From an uncultured Candidatus Saccharibacteria bacterium (GTDB taxonomy: Bacteria; Patescibacteriota; UBA1384; 2-12-FULL-50-11): 64,000 bases of DNA. The DNA is taken from contig CAYHNZ010000001.1 in NCBI GenBank assembly GCA_964358205.1, forward strand, positions 3,168 to 67,167. The letters are read 5' to 3'. The notes beneath the pieces were generated by a model, which saw only the letters and a list, made by a program, of their open reading frames with translations, had not been told where the DNA came from and did not search any database. Below, one piece after another: positions 5,493 to 62,820 of this stretch; within the stretch, counting starts at the first letter, position 1; each line of letters opens with the position of its first letter. Both the position numbers and the translations under genes were made by a program.

Positions 5493-6950
5493 ATGGCTGA
5501 AGAAATTAGAGTTCGGATTGCTCCCAGCCCCACCGGCCGGTTTCATATTGGTACCGCCAGAACGGCCTTGTTTAATTACCTATTTGCCAAAAAGTTCGGC
5601 GGTAAATTTATTGTCCGAGTTGAAGATACTGATCAGGAGCGTCACGACGATTCGTCGCTAAAAGATATTCTCGAAGGTCTGTTGTGGTTAGGCATGAGCT
5701 GGGACGAAGGACCGGAAGTTGGTGGGCCTTATGGGCCGTACTTCCAGCAAGAACGACTCGGATTATATCAGCCGTTTGTTGACCAGCTACTGGAGAAAAA
5801 AACGGCCTACCGCTGTTACTGCACTCCGGAAGAATTGACGGCCGAGCGCGAAAGCCAGCAGGGTCATCACGCCGCACCCAAATACTCCGGTCGCTGTCGT
5901 AATTTATCAGCCCAAGAAATCGATCAGTTCGAACAGGCCGGTCGCACCAGTGCCGTTCGCTTTGTCGTCGAGCCGCAAACAGTTGGCTTTGACGATCTTG
6001 TTAAAGGCAAGGTTGAATTTGACGCATCGCTGTTTGGGGATTTTGTCATTCAAAGATCAGACGGTATGCCGCTGTTTGTTTTCTCCAATGTTATTGACGA
6101 TAATTTGATGAAAATTAGCCACGTTCTGCGAGGCGAAGAACACTTAGTCAACACCGCTAAACAAATGCTACTTGCTAACGCTCTAAATTTCTTGAGTCCG
6201 CAATTCGGACATTTCCCGCTGATTTTAAACGCTGATCGGTCGAAGATGAGTAAGCGCAAGAATCCGGTTTCAATATCGGACGACTACAAGGCCAAAGGTT
6301 TCTTGCCCGATGCCCTAGTCAACTTCATCGCCCTTTTGGGCTGGAATTCCGGTACCGACCAGGAGATATTCTCGCTGGCGGAGCTGGTTGACGAGTTTGA
6401 GATCAAGCGTGTAGGTACCAGCCCGTCAATATTTGATCCTGAAAAATTGCTCTGGATGAACGGCTACTACATTCGTCAGAAATCAATCGGTGAGATCGCC
6501 TCCGAAGCCCAAAATTTTATTACCGACAAGGAGCTCTTTCAAAAAACCCTCGCTAAGCCCGATTATTTTTTGGAAGCAATCGGCTTAGTTCACGATCGGA
6601 TGAAAATCTTGAGCGAAACGGAGGGATTAATCAACTACTTTTTCACCGCTCCCGAATATGATCCAGCGCTCTTAATCGCTAAAAAATCGACCAAAGAAAA
6701 TACCTTGGCCGCCCTCAAAGCGGCTGCTACTGTGGTTGGCGGGCTCAAAACTATGGCGCTCGATGAAGTTGAGCCAGCTCTGCGCGGTGCCGCAACAGAT
6801 CTAAAAATTAAAGATGGCGAACTGCTCTGGGCCGTCCGAGTCGCTCTATCTGGTCGCGACGCTTCACCGGGGGCATTTGAATTATTATCTGTAATTGGCA
6901 GGGAAGAGTCTTTGAAGCGCCTTAATTCTGCTATCGCTAAATTCAGGTAA
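5493..6950 (+). CDS. gltX: Glutamyl-tRNA synthetase (class I, HIGH 'HIGTAR', KMSK 'KMSKRK')
   Basis: 'IRVRIAPSPTGRFHIGTARTALFNYLFA', 'KMSKRKNP'; start moved to internal ATG 5493 matching GluRS N-terminus. Confidence 0.9.
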   Translation: MAEEIRVRIAPSPTGRFHIGTARTALFNYLFAKKFGGKFIVRVEDTDQERHDDSSLKDILEGLLWLGMSWDEGPEVGGPYGPYFQQERLGLYQPFVDQLLEKKTAYRCYCTPEELTAERESQQGHHAAPKYSGRCRNLSAQEIDQFEQAGRTSAVRFVVEPQTVGFDDLVKGKVEFDASLFGDFVIQRSDGMPLFVFSNVIDDNLMKISHVLRGEEHLVNTAKQMLLANALNFLSPQFGHFPLILNADRSKMSKRKNPVSISDDYKAKGFLPDALVNFIALLGWNSGTDQEIFSLAELVDEFEIKRVGTSPSIFDPEKLLWMNGYYIRQKSIGEIASEAQNFITDKELFQKTLAKPDYFLEAIGLVHDRMKILSETEGLINYFFTAPEYDPALLIAKKSTKENTLAALKAAATVVGGLKTMALDEVEPALRGAATDLKIKDGELLWAVRVALSGRDASPGAFELLSVIGREESLKRLNSAIAKFR

Positions 6951-7042
6951 TTATTGTTGACGGCCACCCTGTTTTAACGCATTGTTAAAGCACATGGAGG
7001 GTTTGTTTATATCCACTTACATGGGAGAGGGGGTTTTAGAGT

Positions 7043-16000: not shown

Positions 16001-19000
16001 GGGACATTGCAATATACCGGCACGACCTCGTCGACTGACCGCAGCATTACGACGACCGCGGCGATCACTTTAAATCTTGATATTACAAATCCTGCCGCAG
16101 CGCTAACCATTTCGGGGACGACGACTGTAACGACTGCGCCGTTCACGAAAGTTGGACCAGGGACACTGATCTTGTCGGGCACGAACGGTCATACGGGGCT
16201 AACCACGGTCCTGGCTGGGACGCTAAAAGAGGGCGTCGCCAGTGCACTCTCAACGGGAGCGTTAACTGTTACGAACGGGACATTCGATCTCAATAACTTC
16301 TCGGATAGTGTCGGGACAACCACTCTTACTAACGGTGGGCAGATGATCGATTCCGGCGGTACGACCGCGGTTTTGACTAGTACAGCAACTTACGCATTGC
16401 AAAGCGGTAAGATCAGCGCCCGACTGGGTAGCGCCGTTGCTGCCGGTATCTCTAAAACGACAACGGATCGGGTTATTCTTTCCGGCGACAATACGTTTAC
16501 CAGCACCTCTATAGCCTTGAGTGCCGGCGCCCTGAACCTTCAAAGCAACAACGCGCTCGGCGCTGCCGGTACGACCTTAACGACCACCATTACCTCGGGC
16601 GCGGCTCTGGAAACCCAAAATAATATTACGATTCCCAGCACCAAGCCAATTACGGCTAACTTGGGCGGCGTTAACAACAGTGGCGCAATTAGGAATATCG
16701 CCGATGCCAATACGATTCAAGCCAACATCGTGCTTGGTGTGACCAACACTCGGGTGAACTCGGACAGCGGCACCCTCACCTTCCCAACCGTCTCCGGTAA
16801 CACCAACAATTTAATTGTGGGCGGCGCCGGCAATACGACAGTTACCGGTATTATTAGCACTACATCTGGCACCTTAACCAAAGACGGTGCAGGCACATTG
16901 ACGCTTCAAGGCAATAACAGTTATACGGGTCTGACAACGATCAGCGCCGGTGTCGTGAATGTTCGGCATGCCGCAGGTCTTGGCACAATTGCGGCCGGTA
17001 CCTCCGTCGCCGCTGGCGCGGCCCTGCAAATACAAGGGATCGTCACCGTTGGCGCCGAAACGTTAACGCTCAATGGCACGGGCGTTGCCAGCGACGGAGC
17101 GTTAAGAAATATCACCAACAATAATACTTATCAGGGTAATATTACTCTCAATACTACCAGTTCGATTGGCTCCGATGCCAACACGCTCACTCTAAGCGGA
17201 ACAATAACTGGCGGTGCATCCATTGGCTTAACTAAAGTTGGTGCCGGCGAGGTGTCAGCTTCCAATACGGTCACGGTTGGTGGCGACCTAACGATTTCAG
17301 CGGGAACCTTAACTGCCTCCAGCAACACCATTACGGTTAGCGGTAACTGGTCTAATAGCGGCACATTTACGGCCGGCGCGAGTACGGTGGTATTAAATGG
17401 GGGCGCCACCCAGACTTTATCCGGAACCATGACCACCACCAGCGCATTTAACAACCTAACCGTGACTAACGCCTTCGGTACCAACGCCTCGGACTGCGAA
17501 CGAACCAGCTTTGTGGCCTCGATCGATTTCGATGCTGCGGCCACGGTGACAACAAACCTAGTCTTTACGACCGCCAGTACCAGGGTGGAATTCAACAGCG
17601 GGTCAACCTATGCTTTTACCAACATCAACTGGAACGGTCAGGCATCAGGTACGAAAATTTACTTCCGCAACTCGGACGCTTCCGGTACCTGGTTATTAAA
17701 AGTCACCGGCACCCAAACTGCGGTCTCGTTTATTAATGTCTCCCGCTCCGACGCATCGGTCGTCGGCGGTAACGCCATTGTCGCCAACGACGGCACCAAC
17801 ACCGATTGCACCAATAACACCAACTGGACATTCCCGAGTAGCAATACTGCCCCAAATGCGCCAACTAGCTTGGCCCAAAAGCGCACAACCGATGTGGCGC
17901 TCGCCACCGGTGATTGGACCAATGAAACATCCGTTAAGTTTACGGCAACCGCCAGCGACACCGATAATCCCGACACACTGAAGCTCTGTATTGAAGCAAT
18001 TGCGATTGCCAGCAATTTTACTAACACCGACACCGGCTGTGGAAGCTTAACCGCCTATAGCGGTACACCAATCACTGTTACCGTCACCTTGTCTGGCCTA
18101 GTTACCAGTACCGAGTACAAATGGCAGGCGAGAATCAAGGACACGGCTGATGCCGCTTCGGCCTGGAGCGATTACGCCGCCAATGGGTCTAGTCGCGATT
18201 TTGGTGTTGATACAACCGCTTGTACGACCGCCACCGTTTACGATGGCAGTTCCGCTGGTGTAGATGCCGACTTTAACGATAGCTCGCTAACGGCGCTATC
18301 AGGCAACTGGGATGCTTTTACTTGTACTGTTTCGGGTCTGCAGAAGTATGAGTACTCAATCGGCGTGACCGCCGGCGGTACGACAATCAAGGGCTGGACC
18401 GATAACTCGACGACAGCATCGGTCACCGCCGGTAGCTTGATTTTACACACTAATGAGCTCTATTTCATTAACATCCGAGCGACCGACAACGCCAGCAACG
18501 TTTCGTCAGTGGTGTCGTCTAATGGCCAACAGGTTTTACCGTCGTTAAGTTTTACTATGGGCAGTAACACGATTAGCTTTACTAATTTAAATAGCACCAA
18601 CAACCGACTCGACACTAAAACCGTTAGTCTAACCACCAGCACTAATGCTTTCGGCGGTTATATTATTCGCCAGTACGCCGGTGGCTTACTAACCGACGGT
18701 ACCAATACCATACCGATGTTCTCGGCTGGCTCGTACGCCGCACCAGCTTCGTGGGGGACAGGGTTTTGCTCGGGTACAACTTGTGGTTACGGCTATACAT
18801 CTAACGACACAACTATCCAAGGCAGCAACTTATTTAGTAGTGGCACGCTTTATGCCCCCTTTAGCCAAACTCCTTCTGGCGATATTGTGGCCGATCACAC
18901 CGCCGCCGTTGACGGTACGAGCGGTGCAGTTAGCAACGAGTCGTTCACTATTACCCATAAAGTCGCCGTAACCGCTCTACAAGCGGCCAAAACCTATCAA

Positions 19001-19036
19001 GCAACAGTCTACTTGATTGTCACTGGCACTTTTTAA
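7043..19036 (+). CDS. Giant (3,997 aa) cell-surface repeat protein: N-terminal TM/signal anchor, >30 autotransporter-associated beta-strand (PATR-like) repeats 'TxTGxTxVNxGTLxLG', C-terminal Ig/FN3-like region
   Basis: Single uninterrupted ORF; repeated units such as 'NTYTGLTTVNAGTLTYGV', 'NSYTGLTTISAGVVNV', 'NPYTGATTINTGTLTL' throughout. Confidence 0.85.
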   Translation: MAPQIQRARRRFDGVYQATRGKILCEYNLHPVRFFSVFFSVVVLLGVIAFFKPVSASIGLHLDQRELQNKYPNFWTLAEQKKISPSSDKYFIGDEPVVPSSSPVVLAVASDSTNIEVTADSAHEDIGQNPNQFTKSVSVEQVERGTKISQKETDGQAGLYRIKAQDRVTGAVTAEETIAWGVLAFNPDYSIYPTDTSATLAMAVLDDRGKMICDASLTIEITDPNGNKKILSTENELVLVNNACLIYGPTSEPDYIANYQTGTEGDYQVTIKARVGSGVRTLHDKFSVKDNQPFYLQRVGATRTFPNAEYVYKLNFQPKVDGQYQLTETVPAEFIISDTSAKITEVGDVKKLVWQVDAKAKADQTLMFGYKGPLKSPHLYTFGPAEVSYVADARSSSITQSQQSASRKLQAESWTEPRAWQIASDAPSTVNWDGSSSANWSDGANWSTNAIPQAGDNLVFPAGAANKSNSNDLGENMLFNSITFNDSGYTLAGNTIIVGQGLNGITDAVVSGGNTISLNLRVDVTRWLTVTNSGETLTISGTIAGVGGITKEGQGKLVLSGANTYGGVTKINGGDISARSNTALGTIATGTEVVGEAALELQGTIAIGREPLTLRGYGESSGGALKNVSDSNSFDGLITIAGIAEIQSDSGTLTLNGGVTGAAIPLVLDGAGNITFAKAPVANTSGLITKNGAGTLTYNFPNTYTGLTTVNAGTLTYGVDNAILSGGITVNGGTVDIATFSDMVGTVTLGTLAGGSGIITGSTGVLSSASYVVYVGTISAIIAGDGGTLAKSTPGTVTLTRPNLFSGATTVTVGTLKIQDSLALGVIDGITTVSAGATLQVDGTGLSIPEFITISGVGLLNQGVIWNSTGSNTVTGLVTMAAASTIKADVSTTITYATNGFTGAFGLTVNGDGDTTISGPIATTSGTLSKNGPGTLTLTAFNPYTGATTINTGTLTLNSNGAITMSASIAINSNGKLIADNSSVVTDRIGDAVAVSMNGGSWDFYGSSSTNTLATAGTLTMTGGKNAITVFAGTGGYTIMRFASFSRTAGARGLFRGASLGATPAANVATILFTTAPTLLGDDGVAGTSAVSIMQGVFGDNSTSGTGTDMVTYGRGNNNGLRLLNGAGFSNEYTTNFLTTNANIKISSATAAITSQINSLILDSGASITNPGSAQTITFMSGNILNLEASGSIAGANTTLAAGAVEFSISTPQSLTISSLITTTGGLTKGGTGTLTFSTAKTYTGLTSVNDGTLIYGINDAISSGAVTVNDATLDIATFTDTVGAVVVQGGTITGTSGVLTATSYDLRAATINAILAGSGTLTVVNTNERTDAVTTLSRDNTFTGSIALTSGVLKLGGAGGGSNTPLGTTAAGITMTSGAMLDLNGYTLVTSEAISATGTGIALQGAIINSSASTVTYNGVITQTAAARIGANYGKIIIGTGGITGTFNLTLGGFGDIDVTSAITISTGTITKDGFGIYTPSSASSTYTGLTTVSAGTLKLGVSGGATNTPLGTNAGGVTVTAGATLDMNGFSLATVADTLTINGTGSGTGDFAAGALVNSSGTGVTYVGAIVLGSATTVKSNSGTITLTTGGITGAFALTLGGTASSTISGVIATAAGTIIKIDTGTWTLSSVNTYTGAATIYQGTIKNGIAAAAGGGPLGTAAGATTIFSGGVLDMNGFSLSALAEGLTINGFGIESGGAMVNNSGSGVTYLGTRALGSDTRTTNSGAGLLTLSGIQSGAFESRYGGAGNITISVAIAATASSFWKDGAGTVILSAANGHTGVTTVAAGTLQYGILNTLAAGAVVVNGGTLNIVSFSDTVGAVTLVDGMISGTTGILTATGYTFESGTISGIIAGAVAVNKYTAGTVVISGVETISSTLTIHAGTIEISGSGSAVGVTAITINLGATLTLDNSTTAVASRLLDTIVLTMNGGNFNYKGNTASTAAETIGQLLFSSGHNTVTVTPGAGGSTTLTAATNPGINRTAGATVLFRGTSLGSTPAANISTLKFTTAPIVVGGGGGTGTTTISIIKGAYGDNSLTGTGTDMVTHNVGNTNGLRLLNGPGFSGEYAANLGTASANVKLTGDTAATTTNTNSIVLNGGGVTNASVTLPIAATALAGNILIATAHNIAGANTVLGITTFELNVLANAASTVSATVGTATTGSLTLSGSGNVTFSAANPYTGTTFINNATYTYGVANAISSGAATVIGGTYNLNGNSDTIGALNATGGTIATGAGTLTLGGTVTTVANANVTSIITGNLALGANRIFNVGDGLVDNDLVVSATVTGAFTVTKSTGTGVLVLSATDSTYSGSTTISTGTFRFGSGGSGANGPLGTTAAATIISSGASLDLNGYSLATAEGLTISGTGVGANGAIMNTSSAAATYQGLIILGAAATITSNYGDITISNTGSMTGTGFALTLRGAGNGSIATQVNTSTGGSRVKNGLGTWTVSGDGGYTGVTTITLGVLKLGAAGGATNTPLGTTGTNTTIASGAMLDLNGFTLGTAEPLSIQGTGIANAGAITTSSGIATSYSGAITIATASRITNYGNGTFSLSGAIAGGAVALTTVNAPGTITQTSASVWSGTTSSLTKEGWGTTILAGQNSITGSMTVSSGTLQLGANGGAANTPTGTIAGGVIVSAGAVFDLSTFVLGGASTWEPLTLNGSGIKNGGALISAATSGNNFGVVTYGSSARVVNNASGTITFVGAPTGTFNYVFGGTGPITITGVMPAVAITITKYDSGILLLNGAHLSTGLIRINGGTVRYGVANAILVNAVTIAGGTLDINGQTDAVGAIILMSGTITNGGAAATLTGTAYTFYGGAITAVLAGTAIAMAKNTGATLTINQALTNTGTLTINAGTVQYLASNVVANTAAVIVAGGTLDIGAQTDTVAAVTLTSGAITGSTGILTGTSYAVASGTISAILAGAVTLAKTTAGTVTLSGVNTYSGVTTISGGVLSVGTIGNGGVAGNLGAAPAAASNIVSNTGTGTLQYTGTTSSTDRSITTTAAITLNLDITNPAAALTISGTTTVTTAPFTKVGPGTLILSGTNGHTGLTTVLAGTLKEGVASALSTGALTVTNGTFDLNNFSDSVGTTTLTNGGQMIDSGGTTAVLTSTATYALQSGKISARLGSAVAAGISKTTTDRVILSGDNTFTSTSIALSAGALNLQSNNALGAAGTTLTTTITSGAALETQNNITIPSTKPITANLGGVNNSGAIRNIADANTIQANIVLGVTNTRVNSDSGTLTFPTVSGNTNNLIVGGAGNTTVTGIISTTSGTLTKDGAGTLTLQGNNSYTGLTTISAGVVNVRHAAGLGTIAAGTSVAAGAALQIQGIVTVGAETLTLNGTGVASDGALRNITNNNTYQGNITLNTTSSIGSDANTLTLSGTITGGASIGLTKVGAGEVSASNTVTVGGDLTISAGTLTASSNTITVSGNWSNSGTFTAGASTVVLNGGATQTLSGTMTTTSAFNNLTVTNAFGTNASDCERTSFVASIDFDAAATVTTNLVFTTASTRVEFNSGSTYAFTNINWNGQASGTKIYFRNSDASGTWLLKVTGTQTAVSFINVSRSDASVVGGNAIVANDGTNTDCTNNTNWTFPSSNTAPNAPTSLAQKRTTDVALATGDWTNETSVKFTATASDTDNPDTLKLCIEAIAIASNFTNTDTGCGSLTAYSGTPITVTVTLSGLVTSTEYKWQARIKDTADAASAWSDYAANGSSRDFGVDTTACTTATVYDGSSAGVDADFNDSSLTALSGNWDAFTCTVSGLQKYEYSIGVTAGGTTIKGWTDNSTTASVTAGSLILHTNELYFINIRATDNASNVSSVVSSNGQQVLPSLSFTMGSNTISFTNLNSTNNRLDTKTVSLTTSTNAFGGYIIRQYAGGLLTDGTNTIPMFSAGSYAAPASWGTGFCSGTTCGYGYTSNDTTIQGSNLFSSGTLYAPFSQTPSGDIVADHTAAVDGTSGAVSNESFTITHKVAVTALQAAKTYQATVYLIVTGTF

Positions 19037-24329: not shown

Positions 24330-27300
24330 ATGATGGGTGGGAGGGGTTTTATAGGAGGGCGATTAATCCATTCCGGTCAAAAGTTTTGGCGAAGATTGTC
24401 GAGCCGACGGCGGGTAAATATTTTAATCGTAGTTGGAGTTTTAACACTGATTGTCGGTGGCTTACTTCGTAATGATTTTACGGCTCAAGAGATTGGCTCG
24501 AACGAAGCCCATAACGGTTTACCGCAACTACCGGCCGAACAAGGTGGACCGGTTATCTATCGCCCGAGCGAGAGCGTTTTGCCAGGCGAAACCCTTAACC
24601 TGACTGGCGGTAACTTTAGTGCCCAAGCGACGGCCGTGATCCAGTTGATCAACAACAACGGCACACGCGCCGCTAGCCGCGCCTTGACCCTCGAGAATCA
24701 GAGCGCTTTCTTAATTCAAGCCACCGTTCCTGCCGATTTGACACCCGGCCTCTGGTCGGTTTGGGTCGAACAAATTGTCGACAAGACATTGGTGGCCAGT
24801 AACGAAGTTTATATTAACGCCCCCGATGTGAGCCACTACCCAACTCCCGACGTTGCTCCGGGCGAGAGCCTTGCTATTTACGGTCGGAACCTCACAAAAG
24901 ATAAAAACGACGCTAACGGTTACCGGCAAAGTGCGGTGGTTTTCAAACATAATGGAACAAGCCTGACGGCATCGGTAACGGGTGGCGATTGGTTCCATTT
25001 GGTTGTCAAAGCCCCAGCGGGATTGCAACCGGGTACCGACTACGATGTCTATGTCTCGAATGGTTTGGGTGGTGAGCTAGGCTTGATTAAAGCCCAAAGC
25101 GATAAGCCGCTCAAAGTGGTGGCCGCCGGGACAGCCGATACCTTGGGACTTGGCGTCAACTGGGCTCGCAAACTGGATTTCGTCAACGATGCATCCCGAA
25201 CCTACAACGTTAAAACCGACCCGCGCCTTGCTCGTAAAGCCGTTGGTGACGGAGTAACCAACGATCGGCAAGCGATTCAAGAAGCCATTGACGCGGCCGC
25301 CGCTGGAGGTGGTGGAGTAGTCTACCTGCCGCAAAGTACCTACTACGTTAGTATTGGCACAAACGACACTATTGTTCTTCGTAGCAAGGTGGTTCTCAAG
25401 GGTGAAGGTACCGACAAGACGACGATTAAATACGGCGTGCGGGATGTGAAGGACTTAAGCTATTTCTTGCGTTTTCAGGATATCGATAATGGTGCTGGTG
25501 GTTTAGCCGGTATTACAAGTTTGACAATTACCAATATTAATCACGACAATAGTGATCCAAACTTAGATTTTGTCGGTGGCTCGGCTGGTATTAGTTTTGG
25601 TAACGCCGGTCAGACATTTATGACCAAAGTCAAATACGATATGGGCCCGCATGATTTCGTCGGAAGCGAGTACTCAAGCCAGCTACTAATTAGTGACTCG
25701 GAGATGACCAGCCTCTACAGCTGGATCGGCCCAGCTTTTCGTTTTTCTGGGAAAAAGCCAAATGCCGAGATGTCGGCCGAGCGGAGTGCAAACTCCGGTT
25801 ATTACAACCGATACAGCGGCAATACATTTACATACCTTAACGGCCGATTTTCTTTGTTTGAACAACAAGACTCGACTTTTGAAAATAATCAAGTCATTAG
25901 CGATGTCCGGGCCCAGCCGAACCTCCAAACCCATAACACATGTTGTAGCGGAGGCGTCACCTTTAATTTTAGTAACTTCACCGCCCTGATCGGCAATACC
26001 GTCAAGACCGTCAACGGTATCAATCGGTTCGGTGTAAACGACAGAGAAGCCTTTGTGACCGAGAACCCCCTCGAAGGCTTGTGGCATATGGGTAGCGTCA
26101 CCGACAGTACCGAAACCACCCTGACGGACAATACCCAACAGTGGGAAGATGTCATCAACGGTCGTTGGCCAACCTATAATAACGGCCTTAGTTTCGGCCA
26201 GCCGCATAAACGTGGTGACGCTGCATACAATGCTAGTACCAACACCAACGGTGACGACTGGGACGGTGATGTCCCGCTTAAGCCGGGTAGCCGGCTTCAG
26301 CCGTGGGACCCGATCAGCATTCAGCGTTTGGTGGTGGCGATTACCGATGGAACTGGGCAGGGACAGTGGCGTTACATTACGGCCAACACCCCCACCACCC
26401 TTACTATTGACCGACCCTGGGACTTAAAGCCAGACAGCACTAGCCAGTATAAAATTACCGTCCCGGTGACGATAGACGTGGTCATTGCCAAAAACACGAT
26501 TGAGAACGCTAACGCCGGAATTATCCTTTATGATGGGGGTATTCGAAACCTCATCGCTGACAACCGTGTCATTAATGCCGGCGAAGTGAGTATCTACGCT
26601 AAAGATATTCACAGCGGCTACAATCAACCCTCGTGCGATTTTATGGGGCGGATTATTGGCGATGACCCCTACTCGCCAACACGCGAATCTTTTCCTCGGG
26701 TGGAAAGCAATAACGTGCCGGCCGCTTTCCACGACTGTTATCGCCTCGGCTTAGCCTGGGATAACGAGATAGTCGACAACACCAACGAGAATACCAACGG
26801 CAATTACCCGGCCCAGTTCTACGTCATAAATAATAACTTTATTAACGGTAGCGACCATGACGAGCAGGATTATCTTACGGATGATTGCAACGGTGACGGT
26901 AAAGTTGATAGTGCTGACGCGGCTTGCAATAATGATTACCGCAAAAATCTTCGGGCACCTTTCCATAACAATTCCATGTTTAATACGGTCTTGCGAGACA
27001 ACAAAATCGTTGCCGGAGACAGATTGATGGACGGTAATTACTTATCTAAATTGCCAAATCGTTTTAATTATTTTAGTTTCGACTTCAGTTCCAAGGAACG
27101 TTACTACGTGTTGGCTGGTGGATCAGCTCAAGGACTACTCCAGGAGACTGATGCCGCCAACAAGGCCGTCATCGGGACGATCTTAGACAATAATACCATC
27201 AGTAATATGGGTAACGGTTCAGATGATCAACCTTATATTTTCTCGTTGGGTACGAGCCAAACTACGCTCAAAAGTCTCGGTCAACCTTCGACCGCCTGCT

Positions 27301-27896
27301 ACCGGATCAATCTCACCAAACCCCGTGGCGATCAATCGGCTGGAGGCCTAAATCTACTTTTCTTGGACGCGAATCGTCAAACCACAAACTACAAAACAAA
27401 CCAACAGTATGTAGCTAGTCTGGGTAGCGAGCAAACCGATGCCATCGGTCGAGCAACAATTAACGATGCCGCTGCCAATTTCCTTTTGCGCTATCGTTAC
27501 ACAATTACCCAACGAGCTGATAACGGGGTAATCTGGCAGCAACATCACTGGGTACCAATTGACGCCAACCAGAAGTACACCACTTGGTATAAAGTGCCTG
27601 GCTATCTAGGCAAGAGAACCAACGGGGTATTGGCGAGCGCTCTTTTTGACCCGACTAAATGCGGCACAACCGGCGTTCTCGATTTGACTAAAGCAATTTT
27701 GGGAGACTTCAATAATGATAATCAAATCACCGAGGCCGACATCACGGTCGCCATCCAAGCCTACAACGGCACGACGGATAGCGCCGCTGCAAAAACAGCC
27801 CTCGGTGCCTACAACGACCTTTTGACAATTAAGGATTTGGCGGCGCTTATCAAAACCTTCAACACCTCCTCTAAAGGCGATCCTAACTCGCCGTAA
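24330..27896 (+). CDS. Large secreted right-handed parallel beta-helix (pectate-lyase-fold) protein with Ca-binding DxDxDG-like loops and C-terminal dockerin-like module
   Basis: N-terminal TM/signal; beta-helix-style repeats; 'DDCNGDGKVDSADAA'; C-terminal 'LGDFNNDNQITEADITVAIQAY...AYNDLLTIKDLAALIK' dockerin-like duplicated segment. Confidence 0.6.
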   Translation: MMGGRGFIGGRLIHSGQKFWRRLSSRRRVNILIVVGVLTLIVGGLLRNDFTAQEIGSNEAHNGLPQLPAEQGGPVIYRPSESVLPGETLNLTGGNFSAQATAVIQLINNNGTRAASRALTLENQSAFLIQATVPADLTPGLWSVWVEQIVDKTLVASNEVYINAPDVSHYPTPDVAPGESLAIYGRNLTKDKNDANGYRQSAVVFKHNGTSLTASVTGGDWFHLVVKAPAGLQPGTDYDVYVSNGLGGELGLIKAQSDKPLKVVAAGTADTLGLGVNWARKLDFVNDASRTYNVKTDPRLARKAVGDGVTNDRQAIQEAIDAAAAGGGGVVYLPQSTYYVSIGTNDTIVLRSKVVLKGEGTDKTTIKYGVRDVKDLSYFLRFQDIDNGAGGLAGITSLTITNINHDNSDPNLDFVGGSAGISFGNAGQTFMTKVKYDMGPHDFVGSEYSSQLLISDSEMTSLYSWIGPAFRFSGKKPNAEMSAERSANSGYYNRYSGNTFTYLNGRFSLFEQQDSTFENNQVISDVRAQPNLQTHNTCCSGGVTFNFSNFTALIGNTVKTVNGINRFGVNDREAFVTENPLEGLWHMGSVTDSTETTLTDNTQQWEDVINGRWPTYNNGLSFGQPHKRGDAAYNASTNTNGDDWDGDVPLKPGSRLQPWDPISIQRLVVAITDGTGQGQWRYITANTPTTLTIDRPWDLKPDSTSQYKITVPVTIDVVIAKNTIENANAGIILYDGGIRNLIADNRVINAGEVSIYAKDIHSGYNQPSCDFMGRIIGDDPYSPTRESFPRVESNNVPAAFHDCYRLGLAWDNEIVDNTNENTNGNYPAQFYVINNNFINGSDHDEQDYLTDDCNGDGKVDSADAACNNDYRKNLRAPFHNNSMFNTVLRDNKIVAGDRLMDGNYLSKLPNRFNYFSFDFSSKERYYVLAGGSAQGLLQETDAANKAVIGTILDNNTISNMGNGSDDQPYIFSLGTSQTTLKSLGQPSTACYRINLTKPRGDQSAGGLNLLFLDANRQTTNYKTNQQYVASLGSEQTDAIGRATINDAAANFLLRYRYTITQRADNGVIWQQHHWVPIDANQKYTTWYKVPGYLGKRTNGVLASALFDPTKCGTTGVLDLTKAILGDFNNDNQITEADITVAIQAYNGTTDSAAAKTALGAYNDLLTIKDLAALIKTFNTSSKGDPNSP

Positions 27897-27898
27897 TA

Positions 27899-29113
27899 AT
27901 GCTACTCGGCGGAAAACGGCTAATTACATTGGGCTGTCTGCTAATTTTGGCGGTAGCTTACTCCGGCGACAGACTCTTAGCCAAAGATCTTCCCGGAGCG
28001 GGCGGCAATCAACAAGCCACCGTTAACGCTATTCTCGGTTTTAGCCAGGCCAGCTATACTGGCGCCGTTGGAACAAACACCTCAATCGATCTGGTTGTCA
28101 ACAGCGGCAGTAACGGCTTGAGTATTGTCTCCGTCGCTATTAGCTATCCGGCCAACCTGCTCCGATTTATCGGTGCGGACTATGGAGGTTCCGCTTTTCC
28201 GACTACTGTTAGGGAGGCCGAAGACACCGCTGGAACGATCACTCTTTCCCGAGCCAATTTGAATAACGGAGGGTTTAGTGGTAGTCAGGGTTTGATAGCC
28301 CATCTTAACTTTACCCTCATTGCCCAAGGCTCGACCTTAATCCAAATAAATCAAAATGCCTCCGATGTTCGCGACTATATCTTTGCCGAGAACGTTTTGG
28401 CCAGCGTCACTAGCGCCGCGGTAACTGTTACCCAGGCTGGCGGCGGTACGAGTAAAGGTCCGGGTGGCGGCACCGGCGGTGGAGGAGGGGGTGGTGGTAA
28501 TGGTGGCGGAGGAAGTGGATCTGGTGGCAGTGGTGGAACCGGCAGTGGTAACACCGGTGGGAGTAGCGGTAGTACCACCACCGAAGAAGGCTCGTCAATA
28601 TCAACGGACGGAAGTCAGTCAAACCCAGGCAACCAGAGCAATCAAACCCAGAGCAATAAGAGAGCGACCAAGCCGGTCGTTACCACCTATCCCGACACCG
28701 ATAACTTCCGCAATTTAGTAGTGAAGGCTCTGACCAACCAGGCCATTATTAGCTGGGAAAGTCCGACTGCTTACACTTACGAGCTGAAGTATCAGCTAAC
28801 GAACGGTCAAGCGATTGACGCCCAAACAATTCGCTCCGACCAACCCAACACTCTTTTCCAGGCGGTCATCTCCAATCTAGAAAGCTGTCGAAATTATGGT
28901 TTTACCATCACTCTTTTTGAGGAAAAAAAGACCGTCGAAATGCGCAACGACAGCTTCACCACCCTTGGTTGTAAATTTCTACTACCCGTCGATCCCGTGA
29001 CTGGTCGACTGTCCTCTGTCACCAGCCTACTGATTGCCATCGGTATAACGGCTCTAATAGGTCTAATCAGCTTTTTTACCATCTGGGCTGTCAAAATCTT
29101 TCACGGTCGATAA
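27899..29113 (+). CDS. Membrane-anchored scaffold-like protein: signal peptide, cohesin-like domain, Gly-rich linker, FN3-like domain, C-terminal TM anchor
   Basis: Cohesin-like ~150 aa ('TSIDLVVNSGSNGLSIVSVAISYPANLLRFIGADYG...'); GGT-repeat linker; C-terminal 'LLIAIGITALIGLISFFTIWAV'. Confidence 0.5.
   Translation: MLLGGKRLITLGCLLILAVAYSGDRLLAKDLPGAGGNQQATVNAILGFSQASYTGAVGTNTSIDLVVNSGSNGLSIVSVAISYPANLLRFIGADYGGSAFPTTVREAEDTAGTITLSRANLNNGGFSGSQGLIAHLNFTLIAQGSTLIQINQNASDVRDYIFAENVLASVTSAAVTVTQAGGGTSKGPGGGTGGGGGGGGNGGGGSGSGGSGGTGSGNTGGSSGSTTTEEGSSISTDGSQSNPGNQSNQTQSNKRATKPVVTTYPDTDNFRNLVVKALTNQAIISWESPTAYTYELKYQLTNGQAIDAQTIRSDQPNTLFQAVISNLESCRNYGFTITLFEEKKTVEMRNDSFTTLGCKFLLPVDPVTGRLSSVTSLLIAIGITALIGLISFFTIWAVKIFHGR
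28441..28600. repeat. GGT/GGC-rich low-complexity DNA encoding poly-Gly/Ser linker
   Basis: 'GGCGGCGGTACGAGTAAAGGTCCGGGTGGCGGCACCGGCGGTGGAGGAGGGGGTGGTGGTAATGGTGGC...'. Confidence 0.8.
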
Positions 29114-46625: not shown

Positions 46626-46692
46626 GAACAGCCCAACTAAAAAACTCCCCGCCTGGTAGGGCGGGGAGCGGGTGGCCGGCGTTCAGCAGAAC

Positions 46693-47139
46693 TTATAGTT
46701 TCTCTATGCCGACACCGACGGCACCGATTGCTTGTCTGCACGGCTTACCATCACAACCGATGTTTGTCGGCGTCCAACCGAACTCATGGTCGAGACACCA
46801 GCCCAGGAAAGTCTTCACCCCTGTTTCCTGGTTAACACAGAAGACTTTGCGCCATAAGGCGTCGAGAGTCTTGCGCATGTTGCATTTCTTCCATGGGTTA
46901 GAGCACTTCCTGCTGTGGGTGACACAGAAGTCTTCCTGTGTCCTGACGGAATCGGTATCGACTTCGATAAGGTCGTAAACCCCACCGCAGCTTCCCCGAC
47001 CATGCTCATTAGAAACACCATCCGGGCAGGGAGGGCGACGTGGCGTCCAGCAAGAGCTGTCGGCGGCCCAGGCTAGAGAAGCGTAAGTGACGAAGACGGC
47101 CACTAGGGCCATCAGTTTTGTTAGAGTCCTACTTTTCAT
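46693..47139 (-). CDS. Small secreted cysteine-rich protein (148 aa, ~12 Cys); start overlaps pilin gene stop by 11 nt
   Basis: Signal 'LMALVAVFVTYASLAWA'; ORF-track 233-aa version rejected because its N-terminal half is out-of-frame overlap with pilin gene. Confidence 0.5.
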   Translation of the reverse strand: MKSRTLTKLMALVAVFVTYASLAWAADSSCWTPRRPPCPDGVSNEHGRGSCGGVYDLIEVDTDSVRTQEDFCVTHSRKCSNPWKKCNMRKTLDALWRKVFCVNQETGVKTFLGWCLDHEFGWTPTNIGCDGKPCRQAIGAVGVGIEKL

Positions 47140-47764
47140 TGGATTGCTCCGTTTTGAAGATGTGGTCAAGTTCCCACTTCTCGGTGGAATCGAACCATCT
47201 GACCGATCCTTGAGCGTTGACGCCCCGGACCTTGTACTTAACGGGGTGGTCGGTGGGGTTGGGGATCGAGTAGGTATAGAGCTTCTTGCCAAACTCGTGG
47301 CTTTGAGCTTTGCACTGCCCGCTACCCAAACCGCAGTTGAAGTTGTGCCACTCCATGTCTTTGATGATCGAGTTCTGCCCCTCTTGAAACTCAACTATGA
47401 GTTCTGGAAGACAAACTTCCACTTGCAGTTGAGCGTAACTCAAGGGGTAATAGAACGAAAAACCGCTGACAATCGAGTGGAGAATCCGAGCATCTTTGCC
47501 CGTCCGCTTGTCGTAGAGTTCCCGATCTTCGTTAATGACACCGACGTCGATCAAGGACTTGAGTCTGGGCGGGAAGTACTGATCGTTATCAGTCCGATAG
47601 ATCTCAATGGCCTTCGCCACTTGGCCTAAACCGGCAATTTCCGGCTGTTTACGAGCTTCGCCGATAGCGCTGCTGAAAACAGGGGAAAGAAGTGCTGCCA
47701 GCACCCCAAGAATGGCGATGACGACGATGATTTCAACGAGCGTGAAACCGATGAGGCGTTTCAT
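47129..47764 (-). CDS. Type IV pilin-like / pseudopilin protein (class III signal peptide, N-methylation site)
   Basis: 'MKRLIGFTLVEIIVVIAILGVLAALL' prepilin leader with G-F-T-L-V-E. Confidence 0.8.
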   Translation of the reverse strand: MKRLIGFTLVEIIVVIAILGVLAALLSPVFSSAIGEARKQPEIAGLGQVAKAIEIYRTDNDQYFPPRLKSLIDVGVINEDRELYDKRTGKDARILHSIVSGFSFYYPLSYAQLQVEVCLPELIVEFQEGQNSIIKDMEWHNFNCGLGSGQCKAQSHEFGKKLYTYSIPNPTDHPVKYKVRGVNAQGSVRWFDSTEKWELDHIFKTEQSNEK

Positions 47765-47767
47765 TGT

Positions 47768-48619
47768 TTATTTTTTCCCCAGCGTTGTTACCGCTGTGTT
47801 GGCGACGATTCGCCGGTCTTGGACCTCAAGAATGAAGTGCGGTTGGTCGGGCGAGAAGTTCCAACTTTGGAGGTCGTCTCGATTGATGATGACTACTGGA
47901 CTTTTGGGAGCCCATTCGGCCATCTGCGGTTCGAGACCCAGAGCCAGAATAATCGGGCTCTTGCCTTGTTGGTGAAGTAGTTTGAGGGCTGTTTGTAACC
48001 CGTTAATGGGGCAACCACACTGGGTCCAGACGAGGATAGTCGAAGTGGACGTCAAGAGCGGTCGCGAAGGCAGGGTACTGCCAACTTCTGGACCGCTGTT
48101 GGTGGCGCTGGATCGTAAACCCAGGCTCAAGAGCAAGCCCTTGGCGGCAATATTGGTACTTGGTAGAGCCCTAATCGCCACCGCCAGAATCAGACTCAAA
48201 GCCCAAGCCCCCAGAGCGAATTGGCCAAGCCGTTCTTTACTGCTGAAGGTAACTTGGAGAAAGAGGGCGATGACACCAGCCCAGACGACGCCACAGAGCC
48301 AGCAAGGGTGATACCCGAGCTGCATTAGCCCGAGCGGAAGTGGGCTTAGCACTCCGGCGACGAGAACCGCCGCCTCGATGTTCTTTCGGAGCAGTTGGTT
48401 CTTACTGAACCCAGCCAGCAGTAGGGTTAGGCCGAAACCAACTCCCATAATGGGTAGGCCAACCTGCTCTAGCCAATTGCGAGAGTGGCACGTCGGGCAC
48501 CACTGCAACAATAGAGCCAGAGAACTTATGGCGATGACGATTGAGCCCAGCGACCACCATACTGTCTTGACAGACAACGGCGAAGCTAGGCGTGAGCGTA
48601 ACGAACTATTTGATGTCAT
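47768..48619 (-). CDS. VKOR-like integral membrane thiol oxidoreductase with CXXC motifs and C-terminal thioredoxin-like soluble domain
   Basis: Multiple TM helices; 'CPTCHS', 'CWLC' in/near membrane segments; C-terminal 'WTQCGCP' region. Confidence 0.45.
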   Translation of the reverse strand: MTSNSSLRSRLASPLSVKTVWWSLGSIVIAISSLALLLQWCPTCHSRNWLEQVGLPIMGVGFGLTLLLAGFSKNQLLRKNIEAAVLVAGVLSPLPLGLMQLGYHPCWLCGVVWAGVIALFLQVTFSSKERLGQFALGAWALSLILAVAIRALPSTNIAAKGLLLSLGLRSSATNSGPEVGSTLPSRPLLTSTSTILVWTQCGCPINGLQTALKLLHQQGKSPIILALGLEPQMAEWAPKSPVVIINRDDLQSWNFSPDQPHFILEVQDRRIVANTAVTTLGKK

Positions 48620-48801
48620 AAGACCTCGTTCGGTGAAGTTTCGATTTCCCTTGATGTCAAGGAACCTCTGAATCCCCGATATTCTGCGCCGAATCAGCCC
48701 CTATGTCAATAGCCTTGTCAGCATTTTGCAATTATTGCTTTTAATACCCCGACGGCTTGTCGGAGATATTAATTTACTGCAAATGTTGTTAGCATAATTA
48801 T

Positions 48802-60592: not shown

Positions 60593-60663
60593 CCGGATTT
60601 TAAGCCAGGAGTTAAGCATCGTTGGTTTAAGCGATGAACGAGGAATATGAGCCGAGATTTTTT
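60593..60663 (+). repeat. Direct repeat DR2: relic 3' end of an adenylate-forming gene ('...FPDFKPGVKHRWFKR*') fused to the true start of the E1-like gene
   Basis: Aligns to 59268-59338 with ~8 mismatches. Confidence 0.8.
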
Positions 60664-61797
60664 CAGTCTCGTGAACATTCTGATGTCAAGGAGCTTATTA
60701 AGGAAGGAAAAATTCGTGAGGTTATTGATAATCTTTCAGAAGAGCTGGAGAATCTATTTCGCATAAACTTTCCCTTCATAACCCCCGCTACCCCAGAGTA
60801 CATCACTACTTTTCAGAAGTTTCTCGGTAGATATCTGAACGGGAAGAAAGAAGCTGAGGTTGGGGTTTGGGCTTACTATCCTTGGAAGCAAACTTTGGTT
60901 CACTTACCCGAAAGTGCAGACTTCTTTAAACTAAGAACTTCCAGAAACAAATTTTTAATAAATAATGAAGAACAGCAGAAGTTCTATAGCTCAAAGATAG
61001 GTATAGCTGGTCTCAGTGTTGGACTCGCAGCCGTAAACTCACTCGTGTTATCAGGCGGTGGTGGGCAAATGAGAATCGCGGATTTTGATAATCTATCCAT
61101 TACAAATTTGAATAGATTGCACTCATCGGTATGTGATTTGAACAGAAGTAAAGCAGCTATTGCCGCAAGAAAGGTTTACGAAATAAATCCTTTTCAAGTT
61201 CTCGAAGTCTTCCGGGATGGAATAACAACAAAGAACATAAGCAAGTTTTTTGGGAGGGGGAGTGATAAACTCGACATTTTTATTGAGGAGATAGATGATA
61301 TTAAGCTGAAAATAGACACGCGAATCTGGGCTAGAAAACTAAAGATACCTGTCGTTATGGCTACAGACAACGGAGATAATGCAATCATTGATGTGGAAAG
61401 ATTTGATTTGGAGCCTAATCGGAAGTTGTTTCACGGTAGAATTGAGGAATCAAAGCTCCTAAGCGTTGGGGAGAACCTTGGAATGACGGAGAGAATAAGG
61501 CTAGCTAGCGCAATCGTTGGAGCAGATATTACTCCGAGGACACGCATGTCGCTCACTATGGTGGGAACAAAAATACCAGCATGGCCCCAGTTAGGCAATG
61601 CAGCAACCCTCTCTGGTGTGGCGGTGAGCTACGTTTCAAGAAGAATACTTACGGGGTTAAGTATGCCCTCTGGTAGGTATGAAGTATCGCTTGACGAGAA
61701 ACTTGATCCCACCTACTTCAGAGGTTCATCTGTACAAGAGAGGGAAATAGACAGAAAAGAGTTCATTTTTACGCTTGGTAAAATATTCGGGAGTTAA
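60634..61797 (+). CDS. E1-like ThiF/MoeB-family adenylyltransferase with ~110-aa N-terminal extension
   Basis: 'KIGIAGLSVGLAAVNSLVLSGGGGQMRIADFDNLSITNLNRL' (GxGxxG + DxDx5NLNRQ-like). Confidence 0.7.
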   Translation: MNEEYEPRFFQSREHSDVKELIKEGKIREVIDNLSEELENLFRINFPFITPATPEYITTFQKFLGRYLNGKKEAEVGVWAYYPWKQTLVHLPESADFFKLRTSRNKFLINNEEQQKFYSSKIGIAGLSVGLAAVNSLVLSGGGGQMRIADFDNLSITNLNRLHSSVCDLNRSKAAIAARKVYEINPFQVLEVFRDGITTKNISKFFGRGSDKLDIFIEEIDDIKLKIDTRIWARKLKIPVVMATDNGDNAIIDVERFDLEPNRKLFHGRIEESKLLSVGENLGMTERIRLASAIVGADITPRTRMSLTMVGTKIPAWPQLGNAATLSGVAVSYVSRRILTGLSMPSGRYEVSLDEKLDPTYFRGSSVQEREIDRKEFIFTLGKIFGS

Positions 61798-61803
61798 TAA
61801 AAG

Positions 61804-62820
61804 ATGTCAATTATAAATCCCTGGTTGATCGAAGAGAAGGATTTCGCAGCGGCTAAAGATCTTAGGAGCCAGATAAACTTCTGGTTGAAATACGCCGTAT
61901 TAGCGGCATCTGCGCACAATACCCAACCTTGGGGCTGTATCTTTAGAGACAACTCCCTAATTGTATATAGGGACGAAGATCGAACTCTTGGAAGCGATCA
62001 AACTACTAGATTGGCTCATATAGGTATAGGAGCGTTTATCGAAAATCTATCCATCGCATCAAAAAGCTGGGGGTATGAACCCAAAATACACATTACTGCT
62101 TTCTATCCTAATGAGTTAGAGATAGCTCATATTTCATTCGAGAAGGCCGTAGAAACTACAGGGAGAGATGATCTCGAGTTGTTCAAAGCAATAACCTCTA
62201 GACACACCAACAGGGGTCTCTATGTGCCAGGAAAGCTAGATGAATCCCTACTAAATAAAATTGCAACTGACAAAGAAGGTACCGCCAAATCTTTTGTAAT
62301 TACTGAGGAAAGTGGGAGAAAACGGATCGGAGAGCTGGTAGCAAAAGGCACCGACATAGCGCTATCGCTGCCCTTTATGAAAAGAGAGTTGGCAAGTTTT
62401 ATTTATTCCTCAAGCAAGCCTAGGGAAATAGGAATGCCAATAGAGTCAATGATTCCGGGTCAACTCAAGAACTTTATAAGACCAGAAACTGCAATAAAAT
62501 ATATGAATCCCGAATCGCTTGCTAGGGAAAATTTGAAAAAATATTCCCAAGCCCCCGCATTAGTAATAGTGGGAACTTATGAGGATGACCCTACGGCATG
62601 GATTGATGCGGGCAGACTCATGCAACGAACCTTACTTAGAGCAGCTGCAAAGGGCTACAGCCATGATATAGCAGCGGGACCTATTGAGATACCTACACTC
62701 CTTCCCATTCTCAGACAAGAGATACAACCCGATACAAGGCCTCAATTACTATTCAGAATCGGTCGAGCCGAAAAGTCTTCGTTATCAGTTAGCTCTGGTA
62801 GGAAAGCCGTAATAGTTTAA
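61804..62820 (+). CDS. Nitroreductase-family protein with tandem/extended nitroreductase fold (SagB-type dehydrogenase-like)
   Basis: 'AASAHNTQPW' nitroreductase signature; second half 'TSRHTNRGLYV'; 338 aa. Confidence 0.55.
   Translation: MSIINPWLIEEKDFAAAKDLRSQINFWLKYAVLAASAHNTQPWGCIFRDNSLIVYRDEDRTLGSDQTTRLAHIGIGAFIENLSIASKSWGYEPKIHITAFYPNELEIAHISFEKAVETTGRDDLELFKAITSRHTNRGLYVPGKLDESLLNKIATDKEGTAKSFVITEESGRKRIGELVAKGTDIALSLPFMKRELASFIYSSSKPREIGMPIESMIPGQLKNFIRPETAIKYMNPESLARENLKKYSQAPALVIVGTYEDDPTAWIDAGRLMQRTLLRAAAKGYSHDIAAGPIEIPTLLPILRQEIQPDTRPQLLFRIGRAEKSSLSVSSGRKAVIV

Follow-up and report, generated by a model that had tools for sequence, protein, structure and literature searches.

A conserved three-gene operon from a Candidatus Saccharibacteria bacterium encodes a probable membrane thiol-disulfide oxidoreductase, a type IV pilin-like protein and an exported cysteine-rich protein

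Introduction

In this study, we analysed a stretch of DNA from an uncultured Candidatus Saccharibacteria bacterium (assembly GCA_964358205.1, contig CAYHNZ010000001.1, positions 3,168 to 67,167 of the forward strand). The full 64-kb stretch is called the window below. It carries three adjacent genes on the minus strand, numbered 1 to 3 in the order in which they are read, and these code for a membrane protein of an unannotated family, a type IV pilin-like protein and an exported Cys-rich protein. We found that this triad recurs at other loci in the same order, and there is hardly any doubt that it is a conserved operon. It is also highly probable that the product of gene 1 is an extracytoplasmic thiol-disulfide oxidoreductase. 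The best explanation of these data, to which we give a guarded preference, is that one operon makes and folds a pilin-associated, disulfide-rich extracellular protein.

Results

Organization and conservation of the triad

The locus had been described in an initial annotation of the window as a three-gene minus-strand operon with an overlapping stop and start. Reading of the open reading frames (ORFs) and of the DNA bore this out, as three minus-strand ORFs lie head to tail and the last two overlap by 11 nucleotides (nt):

47768 to 48619, minus strand: gene 1, 283 amino acids (aa), probable membrane thiol-disulfide oxidoreductase of an unannotated family
47129 to 47764, minus strand: gene 2, 211 aa, prepilin-type protein with a family-specific C-terminal domain
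46693 to 47139, minus strand: gene 3, 148 aa, exported protein with 10 conserved cysteines
47129 to 47139, minus strand: overlap of the pilin stop and the gene 3 ATG, read in the DNA

Gene 1 ends with TAA, and the pilin ATG follows after 3 nt. The overlap of the pilin gene with gene 3 is made by the last pilin codons, AAT GAA AAG TAG, and a GGAG stands 8 nt 5' of the gene 3 ATG; this arrangement has the appearance of translational coupling. Genes 1 to 3 are one tightly coupled unit, which reaches from a promoter-like site to a terminator hairpin.

The initial annotation had asked for the conservation of the triad elsewhere, and this check showed that the gene order recurs across independent metagenomes. 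Gene 1 is followed by a pilin of the same family in all 11 loci that could be read (the window, P0004, P0005, P0008 to P0014 and the P0006-like L020), with overlaps of 1-4 nt at every junction except that of the window. The Cys-rich gene is present in 9 of the 9 loci that extend past the pilin (the window, L008/L021, L011, L013, L015, L020, L022, L024/L025 and L019), including those in which gene 1 has 23-26% identity, and the pilin/Cys-rich junctions of the relatives range from overlaps of 1-4 nt to gaps of about 9-24 nt. At one more locus (L014) the contig breaks off after the first 11 codons of an ORF preceded by an AGGAGG, which is consistent with the triad. The genes flanking the triad vary between loci, and the triad is therefore the conserved unit. 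This conservation carries more weight than any other evidence in the analysis. The three proteins also co-diverge (r 0.69-0.79; 0.77 for the pilin and gene 3), and their mean identity is 50% for gene 3, the best conserved, 45% for the pilin and 34% for gene 1.

At one locus, L015, one gene 1 is followed by two copies of the pilin and Cys-rich gene pair, which is duplicated as a whole. The tandem (L015:5959-8160, also found in L016) consists of a pilin at 5959-6552 and a Cys-rich gene at 6565-6987, then a pilin at 7137-7727 and a Cys-rich gene that starts with GTG at 7741 and runs to 8160; the second Cys-rich copy is far more diverged. The L015 module adjoins the genes of histidyl-tRNA synthetase and isoleucyl-tRNA synthetase, both of which the window carries too.

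The family is very rare. A word-indexed search of 5.8 billion proteins retrieved gene 1 alone, and when 1.84 billion cluster representatives were searched exhaustively with HMMER, 11 relatives of about 256-315 aa with 23-38% identity were obtained. Together with the window they make a family of 12 members, that is, 12 clusters among the 1.84 billion representatives (alignment A2). The collection of species-representative genomes contained just two relatives, both in metagenome-assembled genomes; L020 bears the label 'uncultured Candidatus Saccharibacteria' and L021 the label 'Patescibacteria group bacterium'.

The gene 1 product

Gene 1 had no match in Pfam or NCBIfam even at E<=1. Its AlphaFold2 (AF2) model, with a predicted local distance difference test score (pLDDT) of 82.7, shows five transmembrane (TM) helices and a C-terminal thioredoxin fold. 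The features of this protein are as follows:

48125 to 48619, minus strand: membrane domain, residues 1-165, TM1-TM5 and an amphipathic helix, N-terminus inside (AF2 model and charge pattern)
48488 to 48499, minus strand: first membrane-edge CxxC, C41-P-T-C44, at the outer end of TM1, both cysteines invariant
48293 to 48304, minus strand: second membrane-edge CxxC, C106-W-L-C109, at the outer start of TM4 (alignment A2)
47771 to 48094, minus strand: C-terminal thioredoxin-fold domain, residues about 176-283, predicted to be extracytoplasmic (AF2 model)
48011 to 48019, minus strand: active-site position of the thioredoxin fold, C201-G-C203 (alignment A2 and DNA reading)

The helices of the model span residues 17-37, 49-71, 75-100, 107-126, 130-151 and 153-165. 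By the positive-inside rule, the Lys/Arg counts assign the N-terminus as well as the TM2-3 and TM4-5 loops to the inside, and the charge distribution places both CxxC loops and the thioredoxin-fold domain outside; both hold in 12 of 12 members. Alignment A2 has only eleven invariant columns, of which the three motifs supply six with their cysteines. The second CxxC belongs to a family consensus PCxLCxxFW, in which W113 is invariant. At the active site of the thioredoxin fold, the window and its closest relatives have CxC (CGC, CPC, CRC), and the distant members have the canonical CxxC (CPPC, CSAC, CAPC, CATC, CPVC, CPAC, CENC).

The thioredoxin fold was confirmed by structure comparison, with the Cys pair located behind strand 1, where helix 1 begins. 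At E<=1, the thioredoxin, redoxin and AhpC-TSA models of Pfam and NCBIfam did not match gene 1, and those of Pfam matched none of the 12 members. The polytopic CXXC membrane protein with a thioredoxin-like C-terminus that the initial annotation had recognized is thus supported alike by the model, the charge topology and the fold comparison. An internal duplication of the TM-CxxC-TM hairpin was also considered and was rejected as unsupported, with an hhalign probability of 0.7%.

The pilin-like protein

The pilin of gene 2 has two features of its own:

47681 to 47764, minus strand: class III signal peptide and hydrophobic alpha1-N, MKRLIG/FTLVEIIVVIAILGVLAALL (sequence reading; the slash marks the cleavage)
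47312 to 47335, minus strand: C144-x6-C151 pair (CGLGSGQC), candidate disulfide loop (family alignment)

The cleavage motif is G/FTLVE. Among 10 family members Glu+5 is invariant, and Gly or Ala stands at -1 throughout the family. The initial annotation had named this leader, and gene 2 passed the curated cut-offs of both prepilin models, with 25.9 against 21.2 bits for PF07963 and 24.8 against 16.3 bits for TIGR02532. It stayed below the cut-offs of the equivalog models for GspG (TIGR01710, 44.9 against 88.85 bits) and ComGC (NF040999, 26.3 against 75 bits), and in both cases the N-terminal ~60 residues gave the match. The profile of the pilin family matched residues 1-60/80 of solved type IV pilins and GspG with E values of 2e-12 to 1e-9. 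Gene 2 shares with the type IV pilins and pseudopilins (GspG, ComGC, PilA/PilE, Geobacter PilA-N) the class III signal peptide, Glu+5 and the hydrophobic alpha1, but differs from them in its C-terminal ~130 residues. This part is specific to the family and matched nothing known; its motifs are YYPLNY, FEPSxNSxVK, CGxxNxxC and LDGSVxWF...E.WE. No second prepilin gene was found in the window, where gene 2 has the sole prepilin motif.

The Cx6C pair is kept in the 7 closer loci, and the most distant pilins are without it. A third, unpaired cysteine also occurs in most of the closer pilins, at an unconserved position (C118 in the window, about C80-87 in others, none in pilin 1 of L015); it could remain a free thiol or be engaged in a mixed disulfide with a partner.

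The Cys-rich protein

The initial annotation had counted about 12 cysteines in a signal-peptide protein of 148 aa. Its export and its richness in cysteine stand, and the count was corrected to 10, all of which are conserved in every relative. As read from the sequence, gene 3 has a Sec-type signal peptide that ends in AWA/AD (residues 1-25, 47065-47139). The ten cysteines lie in the mature part of 123 residues (46696-47064) and therefore allow up to 5 disulfides. The spacing between them is 5-21 residues, clusters of the CC or CxC kind are absent, and aromatic residues are conserved.

The gene 3 family consists of six clusters among 5.8 billion proteins. It has no Pfam match, no relative among PDB sequences by family profile and no fold relative. 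The best AF2 model, built from an alignment of 6 sequences, hints at three long beta strands. Scans of metagenome contigs with the Cys-rich and pilin alignments gave zero matches. At L015:6565-6987 and L016:2445-2834 the public gene call is an ORF of 129 aa on the opposite strand, and the GTG-start Cys-rich gene was missed. Since automatic calling missed the gene at one locus at least, the family is under-counted in annotation.

In the distant locus L022 the pilin is free of cysteines, yet the cysteine pairs of gene 1 and the Cys-rich partner are kept, which points to gene 3 as the conserved client.

Discussion

A proposed dedicated thiol-disulfide pathway

The triad is a conserved unit that joins CxxC pairs and a thioredoxin fold on the outside of the membrane to a prepilin and an exported Cys-rich protein. 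Dedicated thiol-disulfide machinery for a pilin-associated Cys-rich protein, as the initial annotation had suggested, is therefore the most economical reading.

In the pathway that we propose, gene 1 would by itself make up a thiol-disulfide relay within the cytoplasmic membrane. The thioredoxin-fold domain of this protein, with CGC here and CxxC in distant members, would take electrons from the cysteines of client proteins outside the cell. Both CxxC pairs, where TM1 and TM4 end on the outer side, would re-oxidise the domain, and the electrons would then pass to a membrane acceptor, presumably a quinone. The main client would be the 10-Cys protein of gene 3, and the Cx6C loop of the pilin, where present, would be a secondary one. 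The pilin-like protein would have its leader removed by a prepilin peptidase and be handled by a type IV pilus or pseudopilus machine, both encoded elsewhere. The processed pilin would then bind the folded Cys-rich partner 1:1 and present or export it. We infer in this scheme the oxidative direction, the quinone acceptor, the order of the relay, the complex of pilin and partner and the role in adhesion. That gene 1 acts oxidatively, in the manner of DsbB, seems to us somewhat favoured. For a complex of the pilin and gene 3, to which genetic linkage alone points here, we consider the case evenly balanced. Gene 3 probably codes for a contact protein, and the 'adhesin or toxin' role that the initial annotation gave to it is conjectural.

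The relay logic proposed for gene 1 is that of the VKOR-thioredoxin (VKOR-Trx) fusions and of the DsbB-DsbA system of Escherichia coli and the BdbB/BdbC-BdbD system of Bacillus subtilis, in which a thioredoxin-fold oxidase is re-oxidised by a membrane protein. According to PMC2765640, citing Dorenbos 2002, bdbB lies in the sublancin operon, so that a dedicated membrane oxidase is encoded next to its Cys-rich secreted client. It was also reported that the genomes of the candidate phyla radiation (CPR) are enriched in MdbA-like oxidoreductases beside VKOR, which were proposed to fold pilins (PMC6744442). Disulfide machinery for CPR pilins is already published in general terms (PMC6744442), and therefore the kind of system is known. 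MdbA with VKOR in Actinomyces/Corynebacterium and the CPR families fam000318 and fam000898 resemble the triad as monoderm disulfide machinery for pilus proteins (PMC6744442). However, the MdbA/VKOR systems are common, consist of recognisable DsbA/MdbA and VKOR homologues and serve sortase pili or a general role, whereas the gene 1 family is a rare and unannotated fusion that is locked to a single pair of pilin and Cys-rich protein.

For the docking step, CofJ-CofB of enterotoxigenic Escherichia coli and TcpF-TcpB of Vibrio cholerae offer a model, as a Sec-exported non-pilin protein docks on a minor pilin of the same operon (PMC6048534, PMC9565799, PMC10120004). Such type IVb secreted partners are displayed or exported by the pilus (PMC6048534, PMC9565799, PMC10120004). 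These systems differ from the triad in that they belong to diderm pathogens and have full pilus operons and no dedicated oxidoreductase gene. No sequence or fold relationship of CofJ or TcpF to gene 3 was shown.

Evidence that weighs against this pathway

Several results weigh against the proposed pathway. At E<=1, the PF07884 (VKOR), PF02600 (DsbB), MauE and DoxX models matched no protein of the gene 1 family, with all 12 members scanned. The family profile found no VKOR or DsbB chain and nothing relevant among the PDB sequences. In hhalign comparisons, the probability was 0.2% with human VKORC1 and 1.9% with E. coli DsbB, the latter over 9 columns of PCxLC. The VKORC1 and DsbB reference sequences were validated (VKORC1 7.8e-28 to PF07884; DsbB 3e-45). 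The closest folds of the thioredoxin-fold domain are of the TlpA, ResA, CcmG and DsbE types, which are mostly reductases. The clade of the window has CxC in place of CxxC, and several CxC members are without the usual cis-Pro position before strand 3. As read from the alignment, the switch from CxxC to CxC and the missing cis-Pro suggest an altered redox chemistry in this clade. The gene 3 model has a pLDDT of 59 and is of low confidence, so neither the fold nor the disulfide pairing is readable from it. To our knowledge, Patescibacteria are generally without quinone synthesis and respiratory chains, and the electron sink is thus unclear.

Moreover, a search of the window for pilus machinery found no PilB/GspE ATPase, PilC/GspF platform or prepilin peptidase. 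Among the relatives, a PilB-like ATPase gene lies 87 nt downstream of the triad in L024/L025 and another 2.9 kb downstream in L011, and a PilC-like T2SSF gene lies 2.8 kb upstream in L013; these neighbours count in favour of the pathway. The ATPase of L024/L025 (MshEN and T2SSE, 550 aa) is followed on the other strand by four tandem PF18895 (T4SS_pilin) genes and an unannotated gene of 453 aa (L024:8501-11855, L025:6571-9925). This region is near dnaA, rnpA and yidC and hence close to the chromosomal origin.

Relation to VKOR, DsbB and MauE

The initial annotation had called gene 1 a VKOR-like or DsbB-type protein. As a statement of family membership this label fails, given the absence of any PF07884 or PF02600 match and the hhalign values above. 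It had also stated that its reading would fall if the membrane protein had no VKOR or DsbB homology and the Cys-rich ORF was not conserved. Both halves of this were required; the first is true, and the second is false because the Cys-rich ORF is conserved.

Each of DsbB, VKOR and MauE is a bundle of four TM helices whose Cys pairs face outward, and about 8-9% of the VKOR and MauE entries carry fusions to the thioredoxin family (preprint 10.64898/2026.03.05.709764). The best and sole full-length match of gene 1 in Foldseek was the VKOR-Trx fusion of Synechococcus sp. (PDB 3kp9 / 4nv2 / 4nv5), with a TM-score of about 0.40 and E values of 0.04-0.4, scores that are weak and due in part to the thioredoxin fold. 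Gene 1 has the architecture of the bacterial VKOR fusions, with a four-helix core, a CxxC at the outer end of TM4 and a fifth TM helix that leads to an extracytoplasmic thioredoxin-like domain. Like gene 1, the Synechococcus protein has its N-terminus inside, five TM helices and then the extracytoplasmic thioredoxin-fold domain, and it has a CxxC at the outer start of TM4 and a second outward-facing Cys pair able to shuttle electrons. Unlike gene 1, it carries this pair as Cys-x6-7-Cys in a long loop with a cap helix. The TM1-TM2 loop of gene 1 has about 8 residues with the CxxC at the end of TM1, and the VKOR pattern of loop cysteines (Cys-x6-7-Cys with Ser/Thr) is absent from it. Gene 1 differs further in having no sequence homology to VKOR-Trx, a weak structural score and, in the window, the CxC of the thioredoxin-fold domain.

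E. coli DsbB also has a CxxC at the outer end of TM1, which is C41-x-x-C44 in both proteins by coincidence, and its PCVLC resembles the PCxLC of the gene 1 family. The hhalign comparisons paired solely the stretch of the second CxxC with the CIVC of VKOR TM4 or the PCVLC of DsbB, at non-significant scores. In contrast to DsbB, whose second cysteine pair is in a long periplasmic loop between TM3 and TM4, gene 1 has its second pair as a CxxC in a loop of 6 residues. DsbB has four TM helices and both of its termini inside, whereas gene 1 has five TM helices with the C-terminus outside and a fused thioredoxin-fold domain of the TlpA rather than the DsbA type.

MauE resembles gene 1 as a 4-TM bundle with an outward cysteine motif that is sometimes fused to thioredoxin-family domains (preprint 10.64898/2026.03.05.709764). 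MauE-MauD, like the triad, was originally tied to one multi-disulfide client, methylamine dehydrogenase's small subunit. The active site of MauE is a single CXC between TM3 and TM4, whereas gene 1 has two membrane-edge CxxC motifs and a CxC in its thioredoxin-fold domain; since its TM3-TM4 motif is CxxC, it does not carry the CXC that marks MauE.

The cysteine layout of gene 1 is thus a hybrid, with a DsbB-like CxxC that ends TM1, a VKOR-like CxxC that starts TM4 and very short loops. We treat gene 1 as a new family because the architecture is alike and no sequence homology to VKOR, DsbB or MauE was detected. It is probably a functional analogue of the disulfide-generating enzymes and a member of none of them.

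Alternative explanations

The reductase-type folds of the C-terminal domain bear on another explanation, a reductive or isomerase pathway, in which gene 1 would keep the cysteines of the partner reduced or reshuffle wrong disulfides of the 10-Cys protein. The thioredoxin-fold domain would then work like ResA, CcmG, TlpA or DsbC and would receive its electrons from the membrane domain, in the manner of CcdA/DsbD. On our reading of the alignment, the GPxxGSxxP stretch before strand 1 also recalls the N-terminal motif of the TlpA/ResA class. A 5-disulfide protein plausibly requires an isomerase, and both the CGC peptide and thioredoxin variants with a CxC active site mimic protein disulfide isomerase, which counts for this explanation. 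On the other hand, both CxxC pairs are at outer helix ends and there is no conserved cysteine facing the cytoplasm, so that an obvious route for cytoplasmic electrons is absent. Gene 1 also has no similarity to CcdA/DsbD, which have 6 or more TM helices and single cysteines in PCxxP motifs, and L020 has a separate CcdA-like and thioredoxin-lipoprotein pair about 1.2 kb from its triad. We therefore regard a reductive or isomerase role as unlikely, although it survives better than the explanations that follow. The L020 genes are on the opposite strand downstream of the triad (L020:9596-10891) and code for a CcdA/DsbD-like membrane protein (244 aa, LAPCVLPLLP) and an exported thioredoxin-like protein (181 aa, WCPTC); the two have the look of an ordinary reductive pathway next to the putatively oxidative module.

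The linkage data speak to the question of whether gene 1 is a general replacement of DsbB/DsbA for all exported proteins, with its place beside the pilin merely historical. Gene 1 was never seen without the pilin in the 11 loci, the junctions are coupled, and the linkage holds down to 23% identity among unrelated flanks. An enzyme with a housekeeping role in a large phylum would be expected to be far commoner than 12 clusters in 1.84 billion. In favour of such a role, neither the window nor the loci read, together a very limited sample, showed a canonical DsbB, VKOR or MauE, and about 20% of surveyed bacterial species are without all three known families (preprint 10.64898/2026.03.05.709764). 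On balance, we think a general role quite improbable.

CxxC and CxC motifs together with a Cys-rich protein could also bind or traffic a thiophilic metal (Cu, Zn, Hg), with the thioredoxin-fold domain as a Sco- or TlpA-like copper chaperone. Sco-like fold matches were found, and gene 3 has a weak, sub-threshold NCBIfam match to LpqS, a lipoprotein with a putative role in copper homeostasis (E 0.064, 13.5 bits against 35). However, this match spans the signal-peptide region and is far under the cut-off. The cysteine spacing, the predicted beta-rich protein and the aromatic residues of gene 3 look like those of structural disulfides and not of a metallothionein, and metal handling leaves the obligatory pilin partner unexplained. 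We give it still less credence than a housekeeping role.

A chance adjacency of unrelated or spurious ORFs, for which nothing speaks beyond the absent annotation, is excluded for practical purposes, as all three proteins have homologues with conserved motifs and their order, orientation and coupled junctions are kept across at least 9 independent loci with different flanks.

Significance of the triad

The question of how bacteria without DsbB and VKOR form disulfides dates from 2008. In 2026, a preprint described MauE as a third family and left about 20% of the surveyed species still without a known enzyme (preprint 10.64898/2026.03.05.709764). All three families of the triad are currently unannotated, and gene 1 reproduces a known design without detectable homology. 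Judged from its sequences, the triad may be a further, unrecognised class of bacterial disulfide-bond machinery.

A bolder and rather doubtful extension is that gene 1 founds a fourth, independent class of de novo disulfide-generating membrane enzyme, with a host-derived quinone or oxygen sink and a pilin-docked product. Our doubt covers this extension as a whole, that is, the independence of DsbB, VKOR and MauE, the confinement to Saccharibacteria-like Patescibacteria, the relay, the sink and the product. Under it, a relay of three pairs (CxxC, CxxC, CxC/CxxC) would be complete in one polypeptide. The electron sink would be unconventional, in organisms that are mostly without their own quinones and respiratory chains, and the five-disulfide pilin-docked protein would serve the cell-cell contact of an epibiont.

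If there is indeed a further non-homologous family, the combination of a membrane bundle, outward cysteine pairs and a thioredoxin-fold partner would have arisen repeatedly. An independent de novo disulfide generator in quinone-less organisms would be a significant addition to the field. In Patescibacteria, pili are central to epibiotic life and the supply of electron acceptors is unclear, and the triad gives a handle on how a probable contact protein is oxidatively folded and displayed at the surface. Its weight is limited by a chemistry that was deduced, a weak structural link to VKOR and the great rarity of the family, which restricts its general importance.

Borders of the operon and other observations

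Two candidate signals border the operon:

48681 to 48709, minus strand: sigma-70-like promoter candidate, TTGACA-17 nt-CAGAAT (10/12 matches), about 60 nt upstream of the gene 1 ATG
46644 to 46669, minus strand: intrinsic-terminator-like hairpin, 10 bp (8 GC) with a T-run, 24 nt after the gene 3 stop

Neither motif class was enriched in comparison with shuffles, and both candidates are therefore suggestive by position alone. The upstream neighbour is a divergent gene for a LemA protein and the downstream neighbour a convergent acyltransferase gene. A synteny link between the downstream gene of L007 and this acyltransferase was not found. The same sequence is present on contigs from Hainich groundwater wells (with names like Hain_H43_01um and Hain_H43_02um), a site from which metagenome-assembled genomes of Patescibacteria were reconstructed (PMC8672522).

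Elsewhere in the window, all on the plus strand, 24330-29113 codes for a protein of 1188 aa with a pectate-lyase-like (rhamnogalacturonase A/epimerase) domain, followed by an ORF of 404 aa without a family match. An ORF of 3997 aa (7043-19036) has 11 matches to the passenger-associated transport repeat (PATR; E 9.5e-41) and is probably a huge surface or adhesin-like protein. At 60634-62820, adjoining genes of the ThiF family (387 aa) and the nitroreductase family (338 aa, a weak match) form a pairing that is reminiscent of cassettes for peptide modification or cofactor maturation.

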